NCBI GenBank assembly: GCA_903869345.1
Contig: CAIPYM010000071.1
Span: forward strand, 14,891 to 78,890
Direction of reading: 5' to 3'
Length of the DNA: 64,000 bases
Origin: an uncultured Pseudomonadota bacterium
GTDB taxonomy: Bacteria > Pseudomonadota > Alphaproteobacteria > UBA9219
In this document: positions 44,369 to 59,243 of the stretch, in pieces
Layout: the number at the start of each line of letters is the position of its first letter
Position numbering within the stretch: the stretch's first letter is position 1
Position numbers and translations under genes: made by a program
Notes under the pieces: model-generated
The model's input: only the letters and a program-made list of their open reading frames with translations
Database searches by the model: none
What the model was told of the DNA's origin: nothing

Positions 44369-47300
44369 TTGAACATGGAATCCCATGCGTCGTTAATCTC
44401 CTTCGATTTTCTTCGGCGGGTCTGGGGCGATGGTTACGCGACCTATTGCCAGTCCGGGGAGGATGCCCGCCTTCTTGATACCCTTCGAACATGGGAGGGG
44501 CGTTCCAAGAAAAATGAAACATCGGATGAAGTGGCTTTCATCAAGCATTTTTTTGTGAAGGTCTGGGGCTATCGGTTAAACGGCGAGGGCGAAGGCTACA
44601 CGATCCACCCCAAACATACAGTCAGCCAAGGCAGTGCGCCAGGAAACGTCGGGATCGCCGATGCCGCCCTGGGCTGGTTTGACCATCCGACCATTCCTTC
44701 CGTTCCTATCGCCCTGTGCGAGTTTAAGGACATTCACTCGAATCTGGATGCTCCGCAGAAACGCAAGAATGACAAACGCAGTCCCGTGAAGCAATGCGCC
44801 GAATACCTGCGCGAAGCCGCCCGTGAATCCTATGGCAACGAGCGCTTCCAGCCGCTTTGGGGTTTTGTATCGGACATGAACGAGTTTCGCCTGTATTGGC
44901 GCAACACCATTCCGAATCAATGCCAAAGGTTTGTTTTAGAACGCACAGGCTTAGAGCCTGCTCATGATCTTCTGAGGAGCAAGGCGAGGAAAGCGAAGAC
45001 GACCATTTGCAGGCTGGTGTTGAGTTTGCGTTCGCAGTTTTTCCAGAGCCTGCGCCACTTCTCAAGCCAACCGAACGAGCGTTCGACGACCCAACGCTTG
45101 GGGATGACGGCGAACGTATGCAGCTCGCTGCGCTTGGCGACTTTGACCGTGGTCCCCAGCGTTTCTCGGACTCCCGTGGCGAAAGGCTCTCCCGTGTAAC
45201 CGCCATCAACGAGCACGTTTTGCACGCGGGTCAGGTTGGCGTGAGGGAGGGAGAAAGCGGCCAAAGCCCCGGCGCGATCGGTCACATCAGCGGTGGTCAC
45301 ATGGATCATATGTGGCAGGCCGTTGGTGTCGACACCGATGTGGCGTTTGATGCCGGAAATGAGCTTGCCGCCGTCAAACCCTTTGTTTTCTGCCGTGTCT
45401 GTGTTCTTGACGCTTTGTGAGTCAACGATCAGAAAGGTTGTTTGCGCGTGTCGACCAAGGCTGTGTCGGACCCCGCCAACCACCTTTTTTTAACGCCTCC
45501 TCGAGGAGACTTGGACTGTCCTGACCTTGTGCTCCCCATTTCTGAAAATAGTCGAAGGCCAAGAGGTCTGGGATAAATTGAAAAAGCTGTTTGACGCGAT
45601 GGACGCAGGCGGACGGTTTGGAGATAAAACGCTCAACCGTTTCAACGGTGGCCTGTTCCGTCCCGATCCAGTGCTTGATGGCCTGCGCCTTCCCAACAAG
45701 GTTTTCTGTGAGAAACTGCAGGCCGAAAGCGTAGCGTTTCTAAACGCGCAAAAAGAAACGCTTCTCTATCTGGCGGCCACCTATAATTTTGGCATTCATG
45801 CCAGCGGACAAAAATCCATCACGCTTTACACGTTGGGTCGTATTTTCGAACAATCCATCACCGAACTTGAAAAGCTGAAAGCCGAAGCCGACCAGCGTGT
45901 TTCGTTGACGGTCATTTCCAAGCGTAAGCTTGATGGCGTGTACTACACGCCTGAATGGGTGGTGGCCCAGGTTGTCCAAGAAACCATCGGCACGCGCTTG
46001 GCCGAATTGAGGAACGAGGCCGGGTGGGACGATAGCGAACCCATTCCCGAGCCCAAAGACAAAAAAGCACGGCTTGCCCTGCACCACACTTTGCTGGCCT
46101 ATCTTGAACGTCTTGGAACCTGGCGGGTGGTGGACCCGGCCTGTGGTTCAGGCGCATTTCTCATTCATGCGCTTGAATATCTTTTGGCCGAACGACAAAG
46201 AGCCAAGGCCGTGTTAAACGAAATTGGCGTTCTGACTGAAACAGAACGTGATGCCGAGAACGATATACGTTTCATTCTCGCTCAGAACATCTATGGCGTG
46301 GATATCAACCCCGCCTCCATCGAAATCGCCCGTTTAGCCTTATGGCTGCATACCACCCGCGCCGACCGTCCGTTGTGCGATCTTGACCAGAACATTGTTG
46401 AAGGCAATGCACTGGTGGGCACAGATTTTTACGGCAACAAGAAGGGGAAAGATTTATGGGACGCCGAGCAGCGTGACGCCATCAACGCCTTCGACTGGCC
46501 AAAAGCTTTTCCAACCATTTTCGAGCGTGGCGGGTTTGATTGCGTGATTGGCAATCCGCCTTATGTGAAACTGCAAAATCTACGGAAGGTGAGCCCCACG
46601 GTCGCAAGCGGCAACTATGATTTATTTCTGCCTTTTGTTGAACGCGGCTTGATGCTGCTGCGTGAACAGGGTCGGCTTGGCTACATCGCCCCGTCCTTGT
46701 GGCTGAAAAACGCGTACGGGAAAGGCCTGCGCAAACTGATTCAGCAGGGGAAGTATCTGGAACGCTGGATCGATTTTCGTGATTTCCAGGTGTTCGACGA
46801 AGCCATCACCTACACGGCCCTTCAGTTCTATAACAAAAGCGCCTGTGAAAAAATCAGCTTCGCCTTTGCGTCCGATGGGCAGGTCGGGGGGATTGATTGG
46901 TCGACGCCCGATGGCACGGCCAGCTATGCCACACTGCCCACTGAAGACGTCTGGATTTTTGCTCCGCAGGACGAGAAGGCTTTGCTTGATAAGCTGGCCA
47001 AGAAATGTAGAAAACTGGGTGATTCTGACGTGGCACAAATCGTCGTTGGGGTGCAGACAAGTGCTGACAAGATTTATCACCTTAAACGCCTTGGAGAGAA
47101 CCGCTACCAAACACAGGTGGAGACTGAAGTGGCGATTGAAGACTCCATCATGCGCCCCCATGTCTCTGGTGAAGAAGCCAAGCGTTACCTGCACCCGGAA
47201 ACGGAAACGTGGCTGTTGTTACCCTATGCCCTCGACAACGAAAACACCCCCTGCTTGATTACAAAACGAGAATTTTTAAAAAATATCCAAACGCATGGCG

Positions 47301-48254
47301 CTATATTTGTGATAACGAGATCGTTTTGCGTAGACGAGAGAATGGCAAAATGGATCAAGACAATGGCTGGTGGGGTTACGTCTATCCCAAAAATATCAAC
47401 AAACAACATTTACCCAAACTCCTCATCCCACGCCTAACTGAAAAATTAGGATGTGGCATTGACGCTGACGGCTTATTTGCGACAGATAATGTCGACGTGA
47501 ATGGTGTTATCCCCAAGCGAAGGGACGACTTGTATTTTCTTACCGCCATTTTAAATGGCCCCGTTGCTAATTTCGTGTGGCGAAGAATCTCCAAACCATT
47601 TCAAAACAACTTCATGTCGGCCAACAAACAATTTATCGCCCCTCTGCCCGTCCCTCAAGCGACCCCGCAACAATGCGCTGAAATCGCTGCGGCTGCTCAA
47701 AAACTTGAATCGATGCACTCTGATCTGCGCAGCCTGTACGCTGACGCCAAGAAACGTCTTGAAACCTGCCAATGGACGGAACACCAAGAAAGCCTTCTGT
47801 GGCCCGAACTGGAAGCGTTCAAAGGCCGTGGCGTGACAACCGAGCGCCTGGCGCGGCTGAAAGAATTGAAAGAAAGACTTAAGGAAGCACTCAGCGTTGA
47901 CGGCGAACTGTTGGTCGTTTGGAAAAAGGGCGAGTTATCCCTCCACGTTGGCAAGGCTCCTGTGCTTGACAACCTCTTCCTGACAGAAAGCCAAGGGCAG
48001 CTTTTGGCGATGGCGTGGCGCACAGCCTCTTGACCACACCTAGCCTGCGCGGAAACATTGACCGGCTTGTGGCGCGTCTGTGCCAAGTCCCCGCTACAAC
48101 AAACGCCTCTTTGCAGCAACAGCTTGCAGAGATAGACGCCAAGGTTGCTTCATTGCGATCTGAAATAGCCGCTGCTGAGTCCGCGATGAACGAAACTCTT
48201 TTTGCCCTCTACCGCCTCAAACCCGCCGAATGCGCGATGGTTTTGGCGGGATAA
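44369..48254 (+). pseudogene. Type IIG/Eco57I-like fused restriction-modification enzyme, disrupted
   Basis: PD-(D/E)xK IADAAL...LCEFKD; N6-MTase DPACGSGAFL and NPPY; TaqI-C-like KLLIPRL; interrupted by IS at ~44951-45552, frameshifts at ~47278 and ~48020. Confidence 0.85.
44951..45552 (-). mobile_element. Truncated IS5-family element (orfB plus end of orfA)
   Basis: DSQSVK, GFDGGKLISGIKRHIGVDTNG, RWVVERSFGWL; A7 frameshift run at 45485-45491; end TTAGAGCCTG at 44951; 5' half missing. Confidence 0.87.
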
Positions 48255-49194: not shown

Positions 49195-49270
49195 GGGGCC
49201 ATAGCTCAGCTGGGAGAGCGCGACAATGGCATTGTCGAGGTCAGGGGTTCGATCCCCCTTGGCTCCACCA
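49195..49270 (+). tRNA. tRNA-Ala(GGC)
   Basis: 76-nt cloverleaf GGGGCCA..TGGCTCCACCA; anticodon loop ATGGCAT with the A32-U38 pair typical of Ala(GGC); GTTCGA T-loop; encoded CCA. Confidence 0.97.
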
Positions 49271-49383: not shown

Positions 49384-49434
49384 TGGGGGCAACTTTGGGG
49401 GCAAGTGGATCATGCCGCTAAAGAGTTGCCCCCA
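49384..49434 (+). promoter_or_regulatory. Integrase arm-type sites (attL arm)
   Basis: TGGGGGCAACTTTGGGGGCA (49384-49403) and inverted TTGCCCCCA overlapping the int ATG. Confidence 0.72.
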
Positions 49435-50648
49435 TGCCGCTCACGAACACCGCGATTCGCCAGGCCAAGCCCACCGGGAAAACGGCCAAACTTTTTGACG
49501 ACCGGGGGCTGTACCTGGAGGTTTCTCCGACCGGGGGGAAGTGGTGGCGGCTGAAATATCGCTTTGACGGCAAAGAAAAGCGGTTGTCCCTGGGGGTCTA
49601 TCCCGACGTCAGCCTGAAAGACGCCCGCGAACGCCGCGACGAGGCCCGCAAGCGGCTTGCCGGTGGCATTGACCCCAGCGCATACCGCAAAATTCAGAAA
49701 ACGGCCGAGATCGCGCTCTCCGAACACAGTTTTGAGATCGTCGCTCGTGAGTGGGTGGCCAAGTACACCCCCCGCTGGGCCCCATCACATGCCAACAAGA
49801 TTCTTCAAAGGCTCGAAAAAGACGTCTTCCCCTGGATTGGTTCCAGACCCCTTGCGGAGATCACGGCTCCAGAATTGCTTGCGGTCCTGCGCCGCATCGA
49901 AACACGGGGTGCGGTGGATACCTCCCACCGTGCACAACAAAATTGCGGCCAGGTTTTTCGTTATGGGATTGCCACCGGACGTTGCGAACGTAACCCGGCG
50001 GGGGACCTTCGCGGCGCGTTGGCCCCGGTCCAGCACCGGCATTTCGCGGCGATCGTTGACCCCGACGACGTGGGGGCTTTGCTGCGCGCGATTGACGGGT
50101 TTCGAGGAACGCTTGTTGTCCAAAGTGCCTTGAGGCTTGCGCCGCTTCTCTTTGTGCGGCCGGGCGAGCTGCGCCACGCGAAGTGGGAACACTTCAACTT
50201 GGTCAAACGCGAGTGGCGCTACACGGTCAGCAAAACCAAAACCGAGCACCTTGTTCCCCTGGCCGATCAGGTCGTCGCGATCCTGGAGGACCTGCGCCCT
50301 CTGACGGGCAACCGGACGTATGTTTTCCCAGGGCGTGATCCCCTGAAACCCATGAGCGACGCCGCCATCAACGCGGCTCTGAAGCGCATGGGCTATGACA
50401 CCAAGACAGAGATCACCGGGCACGGCTTTCGTGCCATGGCTCGGACGATCCTGCATCAGGAACTGGGGATTCAACCGGAGGTGATTGAGCACCAGCTGGC
50501 CCACCGCGTGCCCGATGCCCTTGGCACCGCTTACAACCGCACCAAATTCCTCCCCCAACGCCGCGCCATGATGCAGCAGTGGGCGGATTATCTGGATAAG
50601 ATGAAAAGGGGGGCCGAGATTGTGGCGCTGCCCAAGAGAGCTTCATGA
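49434..50648 (+). CDS. P4-type tyrosine integrase
   Basis: Arm-binding domain KLFDDRGLYLEVSPTGGKWWRLKYRFDGKEKRLSLGVYP; catalytic RPGE, KTK, HGFR, QLAH, AYNR. Confidence 0.95.
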   Translation: MPLTNTAIRQAKPTGKTAKLFDDRGLYLEVSPTGGKWWRLKYRFDGKEKRLSLGVYPDVSLKDARERRDEARKRLAGGIDPSAYRKIQKTAEIALSEHSFEIVAREWVAKYTPRWAPSHANKILQRLEKDVFPWIGSRPLAEITAPELLAVLRRIETRGAVDTSHRAQQNCGQVFRYGIATGRCERNPAGDLRGALAPVQHRHFAAIVDPDDVGALLRAIDGFRGTLVVQSALRLAPLLFVRPGELRHAKWEHFNLVKREWRYTVSKTKTEHLVPLADQVVAILEDLRPLTGNRTYVFPGRDPLKPMSDAAINAALKRMGYDTKTEITGHGFRAMARTILHQELGIQPEVIEHQLAHRVPDALGTAYNRTKFLPQRRAMMQQWADYLDKMKRGAEIVALPKRAS

Positions 50649-50684
50649 TGGGATGCTGGTGACGATCACGAGCCTATTGGAATG

Positions 50685-50720
50685 GTCCTGGTTTCCCGAC
50701 CGATTCGACTGTGGTAGGCA
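50685..50720 (+). CRISPR. Orphan degenerate CRISPR repeat
   Basis: GTCCTGGTTTCCCGACCGATTCGACTGTGGTAGGCA aligns ungapped to the array repeat at 27/36, same orientation. Confidence 0.82.
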
Positions 50721-50782
50721 CGAGAAAACGAGGCATGAAGCGGAAGCCTTAGAAGGGGTTGGAATAAGGTGTTGAGGGGGAA

Positions 50783-51217
50783 ATGATGAATCGAGACCTT
50801 GCCATTGCCGCCACAGCCATCTACGGCCCTCGCTGGCAAAGTGAATTATCTCGCCACCTAGGCGTGAACGACCGCACTGTGCGGTATTGGGTGGCTGGCC
50901 GCCAGGTTCCTGACGGGGTGCTGGCGGCCCTCGCCGAGGCTTACGCTGACCGTGCCCTTGCCGTGATGTCCAACCTCGGTATGGGCGGACAGCCGATGGC
51001 CCTGGCCGTGTACGAAAACGATGAGGACCTAAAACGAATCACGGGGGACGAATGGAGTGCGGCGTTTCACACGCGAATCATGCAGCGCGTGGCGGAAAAA
51101 ACAGGTTCATCCCTCGTGACGGTACGCGCGGACGAGTACTTTGCGTGGCTGGAGGGCTCAGGGCAAGAGAACACGCCAGCGGCGCGTACGGCTTATGGCC
51201 GCAGAGTCAACGGGTGA
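50783..51217 (+). CDS. HTH-domain protein fused to an unknown C-terminal domain
   Basis: YGPRWQSELSRHLGVNDRTVRYWVAG (Cro/XRE-like HTH); GAGGGGG RBS. Confidence 0.72.
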   Translation: MMNRDLAIAATAIYGPRWQSELSRHLGVNDRTVRYWVAGRQVPDGVLAALAEAYADRALAVMSNLGMGGQPMALAVYENDEDLKRITGDEWSAAFHTRIMQRVAEKTGSSLVTVRADEYFAWLEGSGQENTPAARTAYGRRVNG

Positions 51218-51459
51218 ATGAAGAAACAAGAGCACCGGAGGCTTACGAAGCCGAAGCGGATCGTCAACAGTTGCACATGGCCTGTTTGATGGTGGTGAAA
51301 ATGGCGGGAGCGTTTTCTGTTCAAATCCACCGTGCGTTGTCTCGAAAAGCCGTGTTCAAGACCTCAACCTCGCGCATAAAAAAGGTATGTTTCCTTAACA
51401 AACCTGTTTGCCTTGAAGACCAAAGCGCCGTGGTTTCCCTACCGATTTGCCCATGGTAG
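51214..51459 (+). CDS. Possible 81-aa ORF coupled to the HTH gene, ending inside repeat 1
   Basis: GTGA start/stop overlap at 51214-51217; open until TAG in repeat 1. Confidence 0.3.
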   Translation: MNEETRAPEAYEAEADRQQLHMACLMVVKMAGAFSVQIHRALSRKAVFKTSTSRIKKVCFLNKPVCLEDQSAVVSLPICPW

Positions 51460-52585
51460 GTTTGGTAGGGTGAAGGGGGATGAAATGGTAGGGCCGTGGT
51501 TTCCCTACCGATTTGCCCATGGTAGGTTATCCTCTGTGGCGAAGAGTGTGCGCCTCACGCCGTGGTTTCCCTACCGATTTGCCCATGGTAGGTTAAGGCG
51601 GTGCAGCATGAACGCGCCCGTCCCGCCGTGGTTTCCCTACCGATTTGCCCATGGTAGGTTACACAGGCGCCTCTGCGCGAGTCTGGGACCGCCGTGGTTT
51701 CCCTACCGATTTGCCCATGGTAGGTTACGTCGTTGTTCCGCCCACGCCGCCGTTCCGCCGTGGTTTCCCTACCGATTTGCCCATGGTAGGTTCCTCCGTT
51801 TTCCTCAAGCATCGGCTGAAGAGCCGTGGTTTCCCTACCGATTTGCCCATGGTAGGTTACGGATGATAAAGACGTGAATGGTCACTACGCCGTGGTTTCC
51901 CTACCGATTTGCCCATGGTAGGTTCGGAGCGTTTGCTTGCAGCTTTTGTGCATAGGCCGTGGTTTCCCTACCGATTTGCCCATGGTAGGTTAAGAGGTCA
52001 ATCGCGCGGCGGTTCAGGGCGGCCGTGGTTTCCCTACCGATTTGCCCATGGTAGGTTTTTGGTCCACAGCAGCCCGTCGCGCCCGTTGCCGTGGTTTCCC
52101 TACCGATTTGCCCATGGGAGGTTCTGCTACGCCCGTCGGCTGAGTGGCGATGTGCCGTGGTTTCCCTACCGATTTGCCCATGGTAGGTTCGATTGTCCCG
52201 AGGCTCCGTTGTAAAATGTGCCGTGGTTTCCCTACCGATTTGCCCATGGTAGGTTGAAGAGGTCCTACCATGAGTGCTTCAAAGCGCCGTGGTTTCCCTA
52301 CCGATTTGCCCATGGTAGGTTCCCGTCCCGTTTTCCTTTTCCCCCCTCGGAGCCGTGGTTTCCCTACCGATTTGCCCATGGTAGGTTCGTGAAGGCCGTC
52401 GCAAAAATGGTTGGTGTGCCGTGGTTTCCCTACCGATTTGCCCATGGTAGGTTGTTGTCCTCCACGAGTACCCGCAAAAGGACGCCGTGGTTTCCCTACC
52501 GATTTGCCCATGGTAGGTTAAACTTAGACGCCTGGGTGATGGACTGGAGGCCGTGGTTTCCCTACCGATTTGCCCATGGTAGGTT
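51427..52585 (+). CRISPR. Type II-C CRISPR array: 18 x 36-bp repeats, 17 spacers
   Basis: Repeat GCCGTGGTTTCCCTACCGATTTGCCCATGGTAGGTT; 16 spacers of 30 nt and one of 31 nt; repeat 11 has T31G; strand inferred from tracrRNA pairing. Confidence 0.99.
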
Positions 52586-52643: not shown

Positions 52644-52973
52644 TCACAGCAAAACCATCTGATCCGCCCCGAATCGCTCGGTTTTTGGGGCCATTCCGAG
52701 CATAAGTTCCATGTGTCCATATTGCCGGTCCGTGACCTGCAACGCCCGGATACTCCCTTCCGAAGGAAGGGTTCCTCGAACACGCCGCAGGTGTTTTTCA
52801 ACCGCATCTTGCCCTCGGCACACGCGTGCGTAAACCGAAAATTGCAGCATCATAAAGCCGTCGTCTTTCAGCGCCCCGCGAAAGCGCGTGGCTCGCCGAC
52901 GCTGCTCTTTGCTGCCTACCGGAAGATCAAAGAAGACAAAGAGCCACATGAATCGGACATCCTCCTCGTTCAT
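52644..52973 (-). CDS. cas2: CRISPR-associated endoribonuclease Cas2
   Basis: RFMWLFVFFDLPV, DGFMMLQFSVYARVC, VTDRQY; ATGA overlap with cas1. Confidence 0.95.
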   Translation of the reverse strand: MNEEDVRFMWLFVFFDLPVGSKEQRRRATRFRGALKDDGFMMLQFSVYARVCRGQDAVEKHLRRVRGTLPSEGSIRALQVTDRQYGHMELMLGMAPKTERFGADQMVLL

Positions 52974-53875
52974 CGCGTCACCGGGTTTTCGGGGGGCCAC
53001 GCGGGCGTTTGCAAAAGGGTTGCGTCGCCCTGTTCCAGGACCCTGACCGTGGACGTTGCCACCGCCTCGGTTGCGACAAGAATGGTCATGTGGTCTTGGT
53101 CCATCAGGACCTCGCGCCCCAAAACAGTTGCCATGTGGCGTCGGTCGTCAACCGTCAATTCTCCTTCGGGAAAGGCGTCAGCACGACCCTGGGCCAGACG
53201 GTCCACAAAAGGCCGAAACGGCTCGATCAGGTCGTCCACCAGGTTAAAAGCGTTGGATTGCGAGTCGTGATGAACGCCAAAAACAGGCAAAAGGCCCGAG
53301 GCCACGCAGGCCCGCGCCAACGTGGCCCGCATAACGGCATACCCGTAATTCAGCAAGGCGTTGCGGCGGTCGCGGTCGTTGCTGCGCGTGAAGCCCTGGA
53401 AAAGCGAGGGCCAGTAAGCCTGGGCGGCTTGCGCTTCCAGGTTGTCGGGATCACCCGAGCCGACGCGCCGGGCCATGGCGAACAGGGCCTTGGCGTTGGC
53501 ACGATTCAGGGCTTGCAACACGGCGGCTTGGTTACGGATTTTGGCGACCACCAACGTTTGCCAAAGACGTTTTTGAAGCGGCAACCCCAGGTCCCTTTGC
53601 AGGTGAGCCACGTACGTCTGAGCGTGATGCTGATGAAAGGAAAGCAAGAGACCCGCTGGATGATGCCGCGAATCCGGCACGATCAGCGTGACACCGCTTT
53701 CGGCCAAAGCGGACAGCAACGAGCCCGTGATGCTGACGTGGACGGTATCCAGAACCACCCATGCCACATCTTCGAGCGCAAAGGAGGACTCGCCATCCTC
53801 CTGCGCCACGACGATTTGGCGGTCCCGAAGACTTAATCGGGCGGCTTGGGCAATGTGCAGACCTCGCCATGCCAT
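52970..53875 (-). CDS. cas1: Type II CRISPR-associated integrase Cas1
   Basis: MAWRGLHI, EDVAWVVLD, EAQAAQAYW, NALLNYGYAVMR, GVHH, NLVDDLIEPFRP. Confidence 0.96.
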   Translation of the reverse strand: MAWRGLHIAQAARLSLRDRQIVVAQEDGESSFALEDVAWVVLDTVHVSITGSLLSALAESGVTLIVPDSRHHPAGLLLSFHQHHAQTYVAHLQRDLGLPLQKRLWQTLVVAKIRNQAAVLQALNRANAKALFAMARRVGSGDPDNLEAQAAQAYWPSLFQGFTRSNDRDRRNALLNYGYAVMRATLARACVASGLLPVFGVHHDSQSNAFNLVDDLIEPFRPFVDRLAQGRADAFPEGELTVDDRRHMATVLGREVLMDQDHMTILVATEAVATSTVRVLEQGDATLLQTPAWPPENPVTR

Positions 53876-56800
53876 GTGCGGACCTCGCGTTTCACTTCGG
53901 CACATTGGCCGAAACGGTCCACAGTGTACTTTCTAATGCTTAATAAAGTCTTTGTACTCACCCTTTCAGAGAGGGACGAGCTCTTGTTGGAGAACAGCCT
54001 GATCTTTCCATTATCACGATCCACACCTCCCGCAAGATAACCTTCAACATGTTTTCCTTTTGCATCAACGGTTCTCACATAACTGCGGTCGTAGAGGCTG
54101 AAGCAAAACGTGTGCTCGGGGCCGATGTCCGTCCAGTCCCGCTCGTCCTTATGGGCAACAACGGCCTTGTTCGGAGGTAAACTGTCCTTTTCAATAAGTT
54201 GATGCGGGTAAATCGGCACTAAAAACCATTTGATTCGGTCCTTCTTGTCGGCCTGGCTGAACACATCCACGCGGACCATTTCGCCGCGTGCGGCAGTGCC
54301 GCCTCGAACGCTGATCCCGGGCTTGTCCGTTGTCACGCAGCGGACTTTGGTGATCACGTCCCCCTGCGGTGAACGCGGGAGAGCATCGGCAGGTTTACCT
54401 TTTTCGATCCACGCCTTCAGGGATTCGATGATGGCCGCGTTGCGTTCGGGATCTTTGATTTGGTCCAGATTCTTAGCCGTCAACTCGTTGATGTCTTTGC
54501 GTTCCGAGACCACGGGGCCTTGATCCGAATCCCACACTTGTCGAATCGTCTCCTTGTGCCCTGCGCCCCGCGCACGCCGACGCTCGGGCCGGGCGACAAA
54601 GACCGAGTCATAGGCCTTCAGCACATCGTCCCTGAACGTGGGCCAAGGCGGCGTGACGTGGCGCAGAGGGCGACCCAGACCTTTTTGTTCCCACTGTTGG
54701 AAGGATTGGGTCAACCGTTGCACTTCGCCTTCACCCACCGCTGCCACGGTGAGTGCATCGATCGCATGGTGCCGAGAATCCTCCACGCGCTCACCGTTGA
54801 CCTTCTTGAGTGATTCGAGGCCCCACGCATGCCGCAACGTGGCCGTGAGGGCTCCGGGCCGCGTGAACACACGCCGATGGCCGCCTTTTTCCTGCCGCTC
54901 CCCGACGGGATAGAACAGCTTGACCGCCTCCGCGAGAAGGCGCGTTGCGTAACGTGTGTCGTTGAGGTTGCGGCTTCTGAACTTCTGCGCTACCTCGTCG
55001 GCGTTTTTCAGAAGGCAGTTGCGCTTCTTGAACCCGCGAAGGTTTTTGTTGGTCTCGATGCGTTGGGCAAAGAGCAGCCAATCCTCGGGGGATTTTGCAC
55101 GGCTGAACCATTCGTAGGGCGTTTGTCCCCCTTTGTCTTGGTTGGCCTTCGCCAGGCACAAAACCTTGTTGTTGAAACTGTCATCGCCAAAGCGGGACCA
55201 GGGCAAGATATGATCCACCTGGACGCTGTTGTCGGTGGCCGCGATTTGATCGGGGTGAATTTCCTGATCCGTATAGGGGCATCGTCCATTTTGTTCCTTC
55301 CAGAGGCGGTAGCGCAGCAACGTGTCACCGTTAACGTCCTCTCTGTTTGCAATCCCCAAAAGCTCCTGGGCTTCGCCGCGTTCTTTCTCGCGCTTGGCCT
55401 GGGTTTCCTTGTTCTTTCTGTCCAGCTCACCGCGTTTTTCGGCGCTGTTGCCGACATCACGAGCCATCTCGATATGAACGGCGCCGGGCAAGCCATAGCG
55501 GTTGCGGAGGGCCCACAGTTGTTTAAGCCCTTCGGTCAACGCCTTGCGGGCCACGGGATTCGCAATGCTGGCGGTCACGTCCGCGACCAGGGCCGTAAAC
55601 TGGGCCTTGGTCGTCACATGCTCGCTTTGCGATAACGTGGAAGCAGCGTGGTTGTACCCAGCGTGGGCGCACGCCTCATCGTAGCGCAAACCTTGCTCCA
55701 GGTAGGGCACAAGGTTGCGACACGCTTTGGCAGAAATATGCCCCGCGCCTTTGAAGGGGTCGGTTAATTTGCCGTCTTCAAGAGCAGCAAGGAGTTTTTC
55801 GAGGATCCCTGCTTCCAGGGGAATCGTACGCAACTCTTTTGCGATGCTCGCGGACGATTCAAAGAAGGTGAACGCACGGGCCATAGCATCGAGTTGATCG
55901 GGATGCTGAAGCATCTTCTGCCATAAATCTTCGCCCAGAGCATTTTTAAGAGCCTTGGTTCCCCCCATGGCCTCGCCTTTGCCAGCAGCAATATCTCGTT
56001 CCTGGTCAGGCTTATCTTGGGGAATGCCTACAAAGGGCTCGTCCTCGGACAGCCCTATTTTTTTGCGAACAGCCTTAACGGTAAGTTTGGCAACGCTCCC
56101 TAAATCAGCAGTGGCTCGTGCGATTTCCTCCGGGGTCAGGGCGCGTTCCCCGGTTGCCGTCTTGACCCGCAGATTCACGAGACGTTGAAGAAGGCGAAAC
56201 TTTTCGAACGAGGGGGATCGTTTGGCGGCTCTTTTCTCAGTGGGTTCAAAGGGACAGAGGCCTACCAAACGCTCGCTATCTTGCAGGGGCCTTTGGTAAA
56301 ACGCGATATCCGTGAACGCCTTTTCCAACTCCGGCGAAGCGAATGCTTGTCCAAACCGACGTTGTGCAGCGAACAGAGCCGTCACTTCCTTCGTCAGGTC
56401 TTCACGACCAACGGTGCGGTCGTAGCGTTTCTCGCGGTTGCGTTTGCGGTCCTGAAAATCGGGATCACAGGCAAACATTTCACCGACGGTACGATACGGG
56501 GCTTGCTTTTCCTGCGTGATTTTCAGCGCGGACAACATCTTTTTGTCGTCCGGACTCTCCGTCTTGCGTTTGGCAGACGATTTGAATCCTCGGTGCTTGG
56601 CGATATGCCCCAGGGCAACCGCGAACTCCAGGGGTCTCAACGCTTCATCCAGACCCCGTCCCCGCACGTCCCAAGGATTAATGGACGGCTTCTTGAAAGG
56701 ATGGGGAGGGGCGCGATGATCCAGCGGATGATGGAGAGCCTGGGCCTCCGCCGAAGGGAGAAGGCCGTTTGCGTGAAAGAGGCCTCGAATGTCTGCCATG

Positions 56801-57021
56801 CGCTGGCAACGACGGCGGAGAACACGGCGAAGAAGCCGAAAGCCTCGCCGCTCCTGATTCTTGGGGGTGCGATCTTTGGGGTTTTCCGGCGCGTCGAAAC
56901 ACCAGCTTCCCAGGCCCTCAATCACCGAGGCTTCACCCGCGTGCGTCGGTTGCCGCAGAACAGCCCAACCGCATGAGGCAATGCCAAGGTCAAGGCCAAA
57001 AACCAAACGCTCATCTGTCAT
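53833..57021 (-). CDS. cas9: Type II-C Cas9, 1062 aa
   Basis: RuvC-I GLDLGIASCGW, Arg-rich bridge helix, RuvC-II HIEMARD, HNH VDHILP...NKVL...N, RuvC-III HHAIDA; GGGAGG RBS; no csn2 or cas4 in the locus. Confidence 0.97.
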   Translation of the reverse strand: MTDERLVFGLDLGIASCGWAVLRQPTHAGEASVIEGLGSWCFDAPENPKDRTPKNQERRGFRLLRRVLRRRCQRMADIRGLFHANGLLPSAEAQALHHPLDHRAPPHPFKKPSINPWDVRGRGLDEALRPLEFAVALGHIAKHRGFKSSAKRKTESPDDKKMLSALKITQEKQAPYRTVGEMFACDPDFQDRKRNREKRYDRTVGREDLTKEVTALFAAQRRFGQAFASPELEKAFTDIAFYQRPLQDSERLVGLCPFEPTEKRAAKRSPSFEKFRLLQRLVNLRVKTATGERALTPEEIARATADLGSVAKLTVKAVRKKIGLSEDEPFVGIPQDKPDQERDIAAGKGEAMGGTKALKNALGEDLWQKMLQHPDQLDAMARAFTFFESSASIAKELRTIPLEAGILEKLLAALEDGKLTDPFKGAGHISAKACRNLVPYLEQGLRYDEACAHAGYNHAASTLSQSEHVTTKAQFTALVADVTASIANPVARKALTEGLKQLWALRNRYGLPGAVHIEMARDVGNSAEKRGELDRKNKETQAKREKERGEAQELLGIANREDVNGDTLLRYRLWKEQNGRCPYTDQEIHPDQIAATDNSVQVDHILPWSRFGDDSFNNKVLCLAKANQDKGGQTPYEWFSRAKSPEDWLLFAQRIETNKNLRGFKKRNCLLKNADEVAQKFRSRNLNDTRYATRLLAEAVKLFYPVGERQEKGGHRRVFTRPGALTATLRHAWGLESLKKVNGERVEDSRHHAIDALTVAAVGEGEVQRLTQSFQQWEQKGLGRPLRHVTPPWPTFRDDVLKAYDSVFVARPERRRARGAGHKETIRQVWDSDQGPVVSERKDINELTAKNLDQIKDPERNAAIIESLKAWIEKGKPADALPRSPQGDVITKVRCVTTDKPGISVRGGTAARGEMVRVDVFSQADKKDRIKWFLVPIYPHQLIEKDSLPPNKAVVAHKDERDWTDIGPEHTFCFSLYDRSYVRTVDAKGKHVEGYLAGGVDRDNGKIRLFSNKSSSLSERVSTKTLLSIRKYTVDRFGQCAEVKREVRTWHGEVCTLPKPPD

Positions 57022-57090
57022 AGTGTCCTCCCTGTTGCCCCTGTTGTTCCGGCCCTTGACTTTATGCTGCAATTCTGGCCCATTGGCTAT

Positions 57091-57185
57091 GGCAAATCGG
57101 TGGGGAAGCCACGGTAACGGAGTTACCGAAAGGTTTCTCCGGAAGGATCATCCCCCATCGGGCAACCGGTGGGGGAAATTCTTTT
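57091..57185 (+). ncRNA. tracrRNA
   Basis: Anti-repeat GGCAAATCGGTGGGGAAGCCACGGT pairs 25/25 (3 G-U) with the repeat 5' part; GAAA and GCAA tetraloop hairpins; U-rich end. Confidence 0.87.
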
Positions 57186-57291
57186 GAGCCGCCTGTAAGC
57201 CTTCTCTTCAAGCACCGTCGCCTTTACCACGTCCCGTCTTGTCGGCTAAGCTCCGGACCGTTCTCGTTACGTCTCGATGGGGCTTGGTGCC

Positions 57292-58503
57292 ATGACCCGC
57301 CACTACGCCACAAAGCATTTCTTTCGGCAGATGCCGAACGAGCTTTTAGGGCGGTATTTTCAGACCAAGGATGTTCTTAAGGACGTTGACTTCGCGGCAC
57401 TGCCGAAGAAGAAGCCGGACAAACTGTTCGCGGCTTGGTTGAAATTGCCGGACACACAACGCAACGCGATGGATGCCGAACTGCACGAGATTTTCGCGCT
57501 GTGCTGCGAGAAGGGGGTTATCGCCATTCTGGACGAAGCCGAATGGCAATTGCGTGAATCGCCTGAAGCCCTGAGTGCCCTTGTGGAGAAACTCTCGGCC
57601 CTGCCCGGCCATTTTGAACGAGCCATGGTGACGTTTCTGGATCATCCCGCGTTTTGGCAAGGGGCATGTCTTTTCTGCCACGCGGACACGCTGGGGTTTT
57701 GGCGAAAACGCAACAACATCCCTCAGAAGCACGCGCGTACGGACCCAAAGAGCCGGAAGGATTTGGCCCATCAAATCAGCACCTATTTCCATCACACGGA
57801 AGGGCGCGGACAGAACTGCGTGGTTGAGGCGTATCGGCGCGGCGAAAGGGACTATTTCTTCTGCTACCCCGAGGACCACGCGCAACAAGGTATCGAATGG
57901 GTCAACGGTGAATGCGCCCGCCGCCCGCATAACCCAGCGTTTGAGATTGTGTACGTCTATGCGCAAAAAGAAGGGTCTTTGGACCTGAGTTTTCGCGGCT
58001 CTTCTAAGGCCGTTGGACCTTTGCAGGCGATGTTCGCCTTGTCCATTTTGAACGTGGAGGAGCTGCTTCCCGATTCCCGCGACACGCGCGTCTATGACCT
58101 GGAGCCATTGCGCAAAAGGAGCTTCCGTTTTAGCTACCCCGTGGACAGCGGCATTCAACGGGTGGCCGTCAAAAAACTCCGCCTTTCGTCGCGGATCAAA
58201 CAGGGCGAGCGTCTGACGCTGGAGGCTGACACCGAAGAGAATGCCGAAGCGATTTACGATCTGTTGGATCAGGTCAAAAAATCCCCCGAGTTTCGCCTTT
58301 ACAATTACCATGTCACGCAGGTGGAGCTGGTGGCCTGCGTGGCCCTTCGTGTGGACAAGCCGCCCAAGACTTTCCCCATCCGGCTCACGTACCCCAATTC
58401 ATGCTCGCTCAAGTATGACGACATCGGGCTGAAGCTGCGGGATATGCTGCAATGCTCGGGGATTGAACCCAAGCAGCCGGAATCGGCCCCCTCTGACGCA
58501 TGA
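57292..58503 (+). CDS. Uncharacterised island protein (~403 aa)
   Basis: Long ORF TRHYATKHFFRQMPN...TYPNSCSLK; ATGA-coupled to the next ORF. Confidence 0.75.
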   Translation: MTRHYATKHFFRQMPNELLGRYFQTKDVLKDVDFAALPKKKPDKLFAAWLKLPDTQRNAMDAELHEIFALCCEKGVIAILDEAEWQLRESPEALSALVEKLSALPGHFERAMVTFLDHPAFWQGACLFCHADTLGFWRKRNNIPQKHARTDPKSRKDLAHQISTYFHHTEGRGQNCVVEAYRRGERDYFFCYPEDHAQQGIEWVNGECARRPHNPAFEIVYVYAQKEGSLDLSFRGSSKAVGPLQAMFALSILNVEELLPDSRDTRVYDLEPLRKRSFRFSYPVDSGIQRVAVKKLRLSSRIKQGERLTLEADTEENAEAIYDLLDQVKKSPEFRLYNYHVTQVELVACVALRVDKPPKTFPIRLTYPNSCSLKYDDIGLKLRDMLQCSGIEPKQPESAPSDA

Positions 58504-59243
58504 CGCCGGAGGAAACCCTTGAGGCTTGGCTTGCTGTTCTGGCGGCTCGTCCAGGCGCGGTTGCTGTGATCGGCCAAGAGGGCCTGCAGGATTGGGACAG
58601 AACGGTTGTTGACGCTTTCAAGGCCAAAGGATTGCTGAAAAAAGCACATCCCGGCGCAAGCATCCCATGCCCCGGTTGTGAAGAGCAGTGTGTGAGGCCG
58701 GTGCACGTTCTGCCCGGCGCTTCGATGGCGTTCATCGTGTGTGATCTCCGCAGTGATACCAACCGCGTGCCGATTCCTTTGGCGAGTCTTGATCGGTGGC
58801 AGACGTCCGGTGATGCGCTGGCCGCCTTGCTGACAGCTATGTTGGGGATTCATCAGCCTGTTGCCCGGAGGGATGCGCCAGGTCGCTGGGAGATTGGCAA
58901 CCTCAAAGGCAAGAAACACGCTAGCCACGTGGTGCTGATGGCCGAGGACGAATTTCTTTTGTCTCTGGCAGGGCACACGGTCAGGCTTACGGAAGTGTTG
59001 GGATTTGAAAAAGGCTCTTTCTGGATGGATCAAAAAAAGTTGACGCATTGCGTGGATAACCCAGCTTCTGGCGGTGGGGATCGGGAATCGGCGCAAGAAC
59101 GGCGGCAGAGGCTTAGGCGTGAACACAATGAGGAAATAGCTAAAGGTAATCGTGCGCCCACCAAGACATTGGCCCTACGCGAAGGCCGTACGGAACGTCG
59201 GATCAGAGCGCTTTTGGAAGACGAAAACAAATCAGTCGTTTGA
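58500..59243 (+). CDS. Uncharacterised protein with Cys cluster and probable C-terminal HTH
   Basis: CPGCEEQC...C motif; basic C-terminus KTLALREGRTERRIRALL. Confidence 0.68.
   Translation: MTPEETLEAWLAVLAARPGAVAVIGQEGLQDWDRTVVDAFKAKGLLKKAHPGASIPCPGCEEQCVRPVHVLPGASMAFIVCDLRSDTNRVPIPLASLDRWQTSGDALAALLTAMLGIHQPVARRDAPGRWEIGNLKGKKHASHVVLMAEDEFLLSLAGHTVRLTEVLGFEKGSFWMDQKKLTHCVDNPASGGGDRESAQERRQRLRREHNEEIAKGNRAPTKTLALREGRTERRIRALLEDENKSVV

Follow-up and report, generated by a model that had tools for sequence, protein, structure and literature searches.

The window analysed here is a 64,000-nucleotide stretch of a contig from an uncultured bacterium of the Alphaproteobacteria. It contains an island of about 13.7 kb, the left end of which is formed by a tRNA-Ala(GGC) gene (49195-49270, + strand) and, on the same strand, a P4-type tyrosine integrase gene (49434-50648), whose product carries Arm-DNA-bind_3, Phage_int_M and Phage_integrase domains. 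Next on this strand is an ORF encoding 144 aa (50783-51217), the subject of this report. The ORF starts 135 nt after the integrase gene and ends 209 nt before the first repeat of a type II-C CRISPR array. The array (51427-52585, crRNA sense on the + strand) has 18 copies of a 36-nt repeat, separated by 17 spacers with lengths of 30-31 nt. It is followed on the minus strand by cas2 (52644-53000), cas1 (52970-53905) and a cas9 gene encoding 1079 aa (53833-57072; TIGR01865, E 3e-188), and on the + strand by a tracrRNA (57080-57185) composed of an anti-repeat (57080-57115), hairpins and a U-tract. Beyond the tracrRNA lie + strand genes for proteins of 408, 247, 965 (primase-helicase-like) and 201 aa, and then a truncated second integrase gene. 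An Rfam scan returned tRNA only.

The 408-aa and 247-aa genes (57277-59243) overlap and sit between the tracrRNA and the primase operon; neither has a Pfam or PADLOC match, and both are missing from the minimal related islands described below. Directly to the left of the tRNA-Ala gene, a gene for an Eco57I/MmeI-type restriction-modification fusion protein (44369-48254) is apparently split; the interrupting element we take to be a putative IS transposase ORF (44962-483, minus strand).

Relatives of the primase-helicase with 64-66% identity were found in three genomes. In two of these the relative lies in a minimal island (L123, G045:C17; L124, G041:C16) that consists of a tRNA-Ser gene, an integrase gene (41-45% identity), the primase gene (about 64% identity; in-frame stops appeared in it in the genome search) and the gene for the 201-aa protein. 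These islands contain no HTH gene (the HMM search was empty), no CRISPR-Cas and neither the 408-aa nor the 247-aa gene. A search of 36 other genomes within the same family and of 24 further relatives likewise found no homologue of the ORF, HTH-only matches in one genus being the only result. Because the minimal islands lack both the ORF and the CRISPR module, the ORF is, by these sequence comparisons, accessory cargo of the tRNA-Ala island, carried next to the integrase gene with the type II-C module and not part of the integrase-alpA-primase backbone. Between it and the alpA-primase operon stand 6.5 kb of CRISPR-Cas.

The minimal islands also define a cargo slot, which is the region between the integrase gene and the alpA-primase operon. 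Within the bacterial order, the nearest Cas9 detected (L129, G462:C22) is 39% identical in the genome search and 35% identical by BLASTP; its locus has a different repeat and adjoins a tRNA-like sequence. The low identity and the different repeat argue that the Cas9 of the island is not the resident system of the lineage.

Gene product and protein family

The ORF is a genuine conserved gene and not a chance frame, as is evident from its two-domain relatives and a confident AlphaFold model. Its ATG is preceded, in the sequence as read, by GAGGGGG at a distance of 5-11 nt. An exhaustive HMMER search of 1.84 billion representatives with the product returned 553 proteins at E<=1e-3. Among the best 150 of these 553 matches are about 15 clusters of full-length two-domain relatives (32-47% identity), the remainder being mostly HTH-only proteins of 60-100 aa that align to aa 1-60. 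A word-indexed homologue search found no match except the protein itself. Both halves of the product are conserved in an alignment of 18 family sequences (A1), the N-terminal half with the motif G-V-x-D-R-T-V-R-R-W-x-A-G and the C-terminal half with Y77, the motif TGD-x-W-x-A-x-F-H and the motif Y-x-x-W-L-x-G-R-x-N-T. The AlphaFold model built on this alignment (pLDDT 92.9, pTM 0.80) has helices at residues 3-26, 30-37, 44-64, 80-87, 93-107, 116-126 and 132-143 and strands at residues 73-77 and 110-114. It comprises an N-terminal XRE-type HTH (about aa 1-65), an alpha/beta dimerisation domain in the order beta1, helices, beta2 (core at about aa 70-115) and a two-helix extension (aa 116-143).

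Scans of the product against Pfam, NCBIfam, PHROGs and PADLOC gave sub-threshold generic HTH matches only. The HTH matched Cro/YdaS/CI-type HTH models and phage repressor PHROGs weakly, and two PHROGs without known function aligned to aa 4-57; the C-terminal domain had no match in the four collections, and the product matched no defence-system model. PF08965 (Aca2_YdiL), with a gathering score of 23.8 bits that the product does not reach, gave no match to the product at E<=1 and none in a six-frame search of the genome, and matched 3 of the 18 family members weakly (best E 0.013). PF14590 (DUF4447) is absent from the matches listed for the product at E<=1 and from the 25 of 31 Pfam families listed for the 18 family members. 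Since these Pfam models fail to reach the product, its membership of a superfamily is based on profile-profile and structure comparison.

When searched against all PDB sequences, the A1 profile matched four Aca2 sequences (five entries), the best being 7ezy (E 1.3e-4), with positions 1-116 aligned to 1-112 across both domains. The sequences of ZF40 Aca2 (gp30) and of YdiL from E. coli were taken from annotated records, the Aca2 family was collected, and a second profile (A3) of 36 Aca2/YdiL sequences was built. Aligned with A1 by hhalign, this profile gave a probability of 96.0% and E 3.9e-9 over 136 aligned columns covering both domains; against single sequences, A1 gave 85% with ZF40 Aca2 and 53% (E 1.3e-4) with YdiL. 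The feature and structure neighbours of the product in the ESM Atlas belong to DUF4447 and Aca2_YdiL clusters.

Foldseek placed SO3848 (2OX6) first with the model (E 1.4e-4) and Aca2 next (E 1e-3 to 8e-3), with probabilities of 0.99-1.00. VIA-align gave Z 9.2 over 124 residues for SO3848 and Z 7.3-8.1 over aa 1-69 for Aca2, and a scan of 48,161 chains, independent of Foldseek, ranked SO3848 first (Z 8.5, 141 aa) and Aca2 second. The C-terminal 83 residues were also modelled alone (pLDDT 91.4). This domain superposed on SO3848 2OX6 with TM 0.74 and rmsd 2.1 A; in a second comparison Z was 8.7 over 82 of the 83 residues (rmsd 2.6 A), the next chain reaching Z 4.5. SO3848 is the sole clear structural match of the C-terminal domain, and no Acr structure is among the matches listed. 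Going by the models, the C-terminal 85 or so residues are assigned to the dimerisation domain of the Aca2/YdiL/SO3848 superfamily, and helices 116-126 and 132-143 of the model correspond to the C-terminal extension of SO3848, a feature previously known from that protein alone. Two extra C-terminal alpha-helices after beta2 have been described for that protein (PMC8434428). The product is accordingly best described, on profile and model, as a divergent long-form member of this superfamily.

SO3848 of Shewanella oneidensis MR-1 has the two-domain architecture and the two extra C-terminal helices in common with the ORF product, at a sequence identity of only 11-16%. It has been described as structurally homologous to Aca2, without a known function, and its gene, which adjoins an SMI1/KNR4 gene, is chromosomal and reported outside islands (PMC8434428), unlike the ORF, which an island carries as cargo next to a Cas9 array. 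Because some ESM Atlas neighbours carry PF14590, DUF4447/PF14590 is suggested as the family of SO3848. Aca2 of Pectobacterium phage ZF40 and its relatives (PF08965) shares the HTH and the alpha/beta dimerisation domain with the ORF product and, like it, is carried by mobile elements; the identity is about 18-24%, and the ORF product has 28 extra C-terminal residues. YdiL of E. coli/Salmonella (1S4K) is of the same superfamily and matches at Z 6.7-6.8 in the HTH domain and at Z 3.0 over 51 residues in the C-terminal domain. It is a short form without the two-helix extension, and its gene lies in a core chromosomal region, whereas the ORF lies on an island.

In the hhalign alignment, R30 and Y34 of ZF40 Aca2 fall on R31 and Y35 of the ORF product. 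R39 falls on R40 only after a one-residue gap is shifted by hand, the unshifted alignment having R39 opposite the gap and S40 on R40. R31 is nearly invariant within the family, and the position of Y35 is R in most members. Mutation of R30, Y34 or R39 abolishes the binding of ZF40 Aca2 to IR1 (PMC8633003). As aligned after this shift, the recognition helix of the ORF product keeps the three base-contact residues of ZF40 Aca2 (R31/Y35/R40).

The initial annotation had described a gene beside the Cas9 array for an HTH protein with a fused unknown domain of about 85 aa. The gene is real, the peptides quoted for it are present in the product, and its two-domain relatives are conserved. The HTH part of the description stands; the supposedly unknown fusion partner is, by the model, the dimerisation domain of the Aca2/YdiL/SO3848 superfamily. 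With homology to Aca2 in both domains and the DNA-contact residues kept, the suggested label of an Aca-like regulator suits both the fold and the likely biochemistry. An HTH-fused Acr of the AcrIIA1 type finds no support, since the C-terminal domain is assigned to the family's own dimerisation module, with SO3848 as its unique match.

Degenerate repeat and transcription signals

A solitary degenerate CRISPR repeat (50685-50720, + strand) lies in the 5' region of the ORF, in the same orientation as the array repeat and identical to it at 27 of 36 positions. It was found by scanning and was placed in the repeat family of the array by a later repeat search. Matches to the repeat of at least 23/36 outside the array, in the 1.74-Mb genome, are this lone repeat (27), the tracrRNA anti-repeat (24) and a hit on contig C18 (23). 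The crRNA sense of the repeat is the + strand, so transcription of the array runs away from the ORF and towards cas2. The ORF is thus located at the array end that is proximal to transcription and distal to the cas genes, and it is co-directional with the crRNAs. With the degenerate repeat on one side and the first intact repeat on the other, it occupies a "spacer position" of 706 nt. As both ends of the contiguous array have intact repeats, the lone repeat looks like a decayed terminal repeat at an old array end.

The anti-repeat pairs with repeat positions 1-25, including three G-U wobbles, and 21 of these 25 positions can still pair in the lone repeat (hand count). Duplex energies with the tracrRNA were -55.6 kcal/mol for the true repeat, -39.9 kcal/mol for the lone repeat and -20.5 +/- 3.7 kcal/mol for shuffles, and a few unrelated 36-mers of the window also reach about -40 kcal/mol. 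Neither the 30-nt stretches flanking the lone repeat nor the 30 nt ahead of repeat 1 gave more than chance-level matches in the genome (<=17 nt), and a role of the flanks as regulatory guides is therefore without support. A chimeric crRNA-tracrRNA mimic after the lone repeat was not seen by eye.

One spacer of the array (52322-52351) matches another contig of the same genome at 28 of 30 positions (C60:14211-14240), within a prophage and just after the major capsid gene. The mismatches are at spacer positions 22 and 25 of 30, which would be PAM-proximal with a PAM on the 3' side of the protospacer, as is assumed here; the 3' flank of the protospacer, GGTCACCA, is a clue to the PAM. From its sequence the spacer looks like a near self-target, as would fit a resident prophage that has escaped.

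The intergenic region between the integrase gene and the ORF (50649-50782, + strand) contains no consensus promoter, terminator or statistically supported operator. None of the former two was predicted anywhere within 50550-51500, so that co-transcription of the integrase gene, the lone repeat, the ORF and the array is possible. A 40-aa frame in this region (50653-50775, + strand, ATG to TGA by sequence reading) for the most part translates the degenerate repeat and is unlikely to be a gene. Two palindromes (50658-50669 and 50684-50701) occur nowhere else in the window, yet are within chance, being reproduced by shuffles. The motifs GGTGA-N3-TCAC and GGTC-N10-GACC occur once each, with at least one match in 36 and 83 of 100 shuffles, respectively. 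Neither GTTC-N8-GAAC, the operator of ZF40 Aca2, nor a structured 5' UTR motif like the one bound by Aca2 was found at the ORF, which differs from aca2 in both respects; the RNA fold of the 5' region has z -0.55.

The 209-nt gap from the stop codon of the ORF to the first repeat (51218-51426) contains no + strand terminator, so read-through from the ORF into the array is possible. The RNA fold of this gap is unremarkable (z +0.64). On the minus strand, just outside repeat 1, an AT-rich hairpin (51377-51405) with a 9-bp stem containing one mismatch is followed by TTTTTT. It is below the GC rule of the terminator scanner and could stop antisense transcription from the cas operon through the array.

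Genomic context of the relatives

The contexts of three two-domain relatives (L107, L108 and L062) and of one weak match (L009) were read. L107 (G393) lies within a prophage, beside terminase and portal genes, and the cas1 gene of its host is on another contig. At L107:9640-9700 a TTGACA / TATAAA-type promoter is overlapped by the inverted repeat TATCAC-N6-GTGATA. This layout is of the classic autorepressor type and is in line with autorepression as a habit of the family. Upstream of the promoter are 3.5 copies of a 20-nt tandem repeat, iteron-like in look. L108 is located in a small islet between two tRNA genes, in a genome without detectable cas1; its neighbours are a gene pair that we take, by eye, to be a putative hicA/hicB-like pair. 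L009 is from a Lentzea genome, in which cas1 was not detectable either.

L062, the best two-domain relative with readable DNA, is on a 1-kb contig, where it is flanked by a 70-nt direct repeat. The two copies (L062:196-265 and 778-847) are identical at 66 of 70 positions and duplicate the 5' coding part of a minus-strand gene. Flanking direct repeats are absent in L107, L108 and L109. Both L062 and the gene in the window, the latter with the degenerate repeat and repeat 1, are bracketed by direct repeats, a hint at possible movement of the gene as a small cassette through recombination between short homologous stretches.

No cas genes or array were found near L107, L108, L062 or L009, and no aca2-like ORF was found within the short readable flanks of the cas9 loci of the same order and of two in IMG/VR. 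When genome, metagenome and viral collections were scanned by pattern, almost all matches were small HTH-only proteins, as they were in tblastn of plasmids and phages. Among the contexts read, the arrangement beside a Cas9 array is a single case, and on present evidence the family consists of mobile-element regulators that are not CRISPR-linked. The association with acr and cas loci by which the initial annotation would have tied the gene to CRISPR was not borne out: the readable relatives belong to a prophage and a tRNA islet where cas genes are not close by, and the genomes of two relatives have no detectable cas1. Since the readable relatives are not beside CRISPR loci, a role of the ORF in array expression is suggested only by its position in this one locus.

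Possible roles of the regulator

In the reading that we consider probable, the ORF encodes a homodimeric HTH repressor of the Aca2/YdiL/SO3848 superfamily, carried as cargo of the CRISPR module, which autoregulates and sets the read-in to the array and is not an inhibitor of Cas9. The homodimer would recognise an inverted repeat within the 5' region of its gene, repressing that gene, and this autoregulation would set the transcription that passes from the integrase/ORF unit into the first repeats of the array. Judged by sequence, a dimeric autorepressor carried with the CRISPR cargo is the most likely role; the protein may also gate the transcription that enters the array.

Racr (RNA anti-CRISPR) elements are solitary repeat units that often lie close to anti-CRISPR genes; validated examples act against types I-C, I-E, I-F and V-A and are carried by phages and plasmids attacking a CRISPR host (PMC10651486). 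The locus resembles them in that a CRISPR-repeat-like element stands by itself, apart from the array, on a mobile element and beside a gene of an anti-CRISPR-associated type. It seems unlikely that this repeat and the Aca2-like gene form one unit, built into the head of a Cas9 array of a satellite-like island, in which a repeat-mimic RNA, or a site for tracrRNA/RNase III processing of the integrase-ORF transcript, is under an Aca-type repressor. A cassette of racr-aca type would be captured from an invader by terminal-repeat recombination, or kept to damp the Cas9 of the island; its repeat-mimic RNA would pair with the tracrRNA and titrate Cas9, and the Aca2-like protein would repress the unit. 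The lone repeat is directly upstream of the aca2-like gene and co-directional with it, which is the position of acr in acr-aca operons, and its pairing with the anti-repeat is well above that of shuffles. However, similar duplex energies occur in other 36-mers of the window, the promoter search found none ahead of the lone repeat, and arrays ordinarily end in a decayed repeat. The element also differs from Racrs in lying 706 nt from an array of its own island, and it shares that island with the Cas9 to be inhibited. A spacer that nearly matches a resident prophage is a situation often linked to CRISPR inhibition, but the two mismatches, which would fall in the PAM-proximal seed with the assumed 3' PAM, could alone explain tolerance. 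On balance the racr-aca cassette is held to be improbable. If true, it would amount to a brake on a mobile Cas9, made of an RNA and a repressor and encoded in cis, or to an anti-Cas9 cassette that was captured, and would be the first racr-aca pair for type II-C.

Repressors next to the integrase gene are usual in PICI-type and satellite-type islands. A regulator of the island life cycle, unrelated to CRISPR, would be a Stl/CI/Cro-like repressor or a directionality factor acting on the integrase or on the alpA-primase operon. The same strand as the integrase gene, the short distance from it without a terminator and the weak matches to phage repressor models speak for such a role, which is nevertheless doubtful: the closest related islands (G041 and G045, primase 64-66%) are without a homologue, the CRISPR-Cas genes stand between the ORF and the alpA-primase operon, and the CRISPR repeats that bracket the ORF tie it to the array. 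A classical acr-aca operon, with the 40-aa frame as a tiny protein anti-CRISPR and the ORF as its Aca, is very improbable. The frame begins 5 nt after the integrase stop codon and ends 7 nt before the ORF, a packing like that of acr-aca operons, but about one-third of it is the degenerate repeat, in the frame that gives 'WFPYRFAHGR' through every true repeat, and its ribosome-binding site is poor. We know of no Acr protein as short as 40 aa. Upstream of the ORF there are only the integrase gene, the degenerate repeat and this doubtful frame; unlike Aca2, the ORF has no protein acr gene upstream, and it is in cis with a cas9 locus whereas Aca2 is on a phage attacking one. Hardly any likelihood is given to an XRE-HTH antitoxin of a toxin-antitoxin pair, another of the earlier proposals. 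The HTH structurally resembles HigA/MqsA-type antitoxin domains (Z about 6), and L108 adjoins its putative hicAB pair, but that pair would be complete alone. In the window the integrase gene and the array are the only neighbours, with no toxin-sized partner ORF on either side, and the C-terminal domain matches the dimerisation domain of Aca2/SO3848, not a toxin-neutralising segment.

The locus places a divergent long-form Aca2 relative, missed by Pfam, in cis with a complete Cas9 system on a small integrative island. Aca2-type repressors are brakes on phage anti-CRISPR genes. Even if the protein is only a passenger autoregulator, a fold and a likely biochemistry are assigned to a rare family of about 15 clusters, which is linked to the hitherto orphan SO3848 structure, and the locus is a warning that Aca2 homology alone is no marker of an anti-CRISPR locus. 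If the protein regulates the array or Cas9, it would be a compact switch for a type II-C Cas9 of 1079 aa, and mobile CRISPR-Cas modules would borrow the fold of a counter-defence regulator for self-control.
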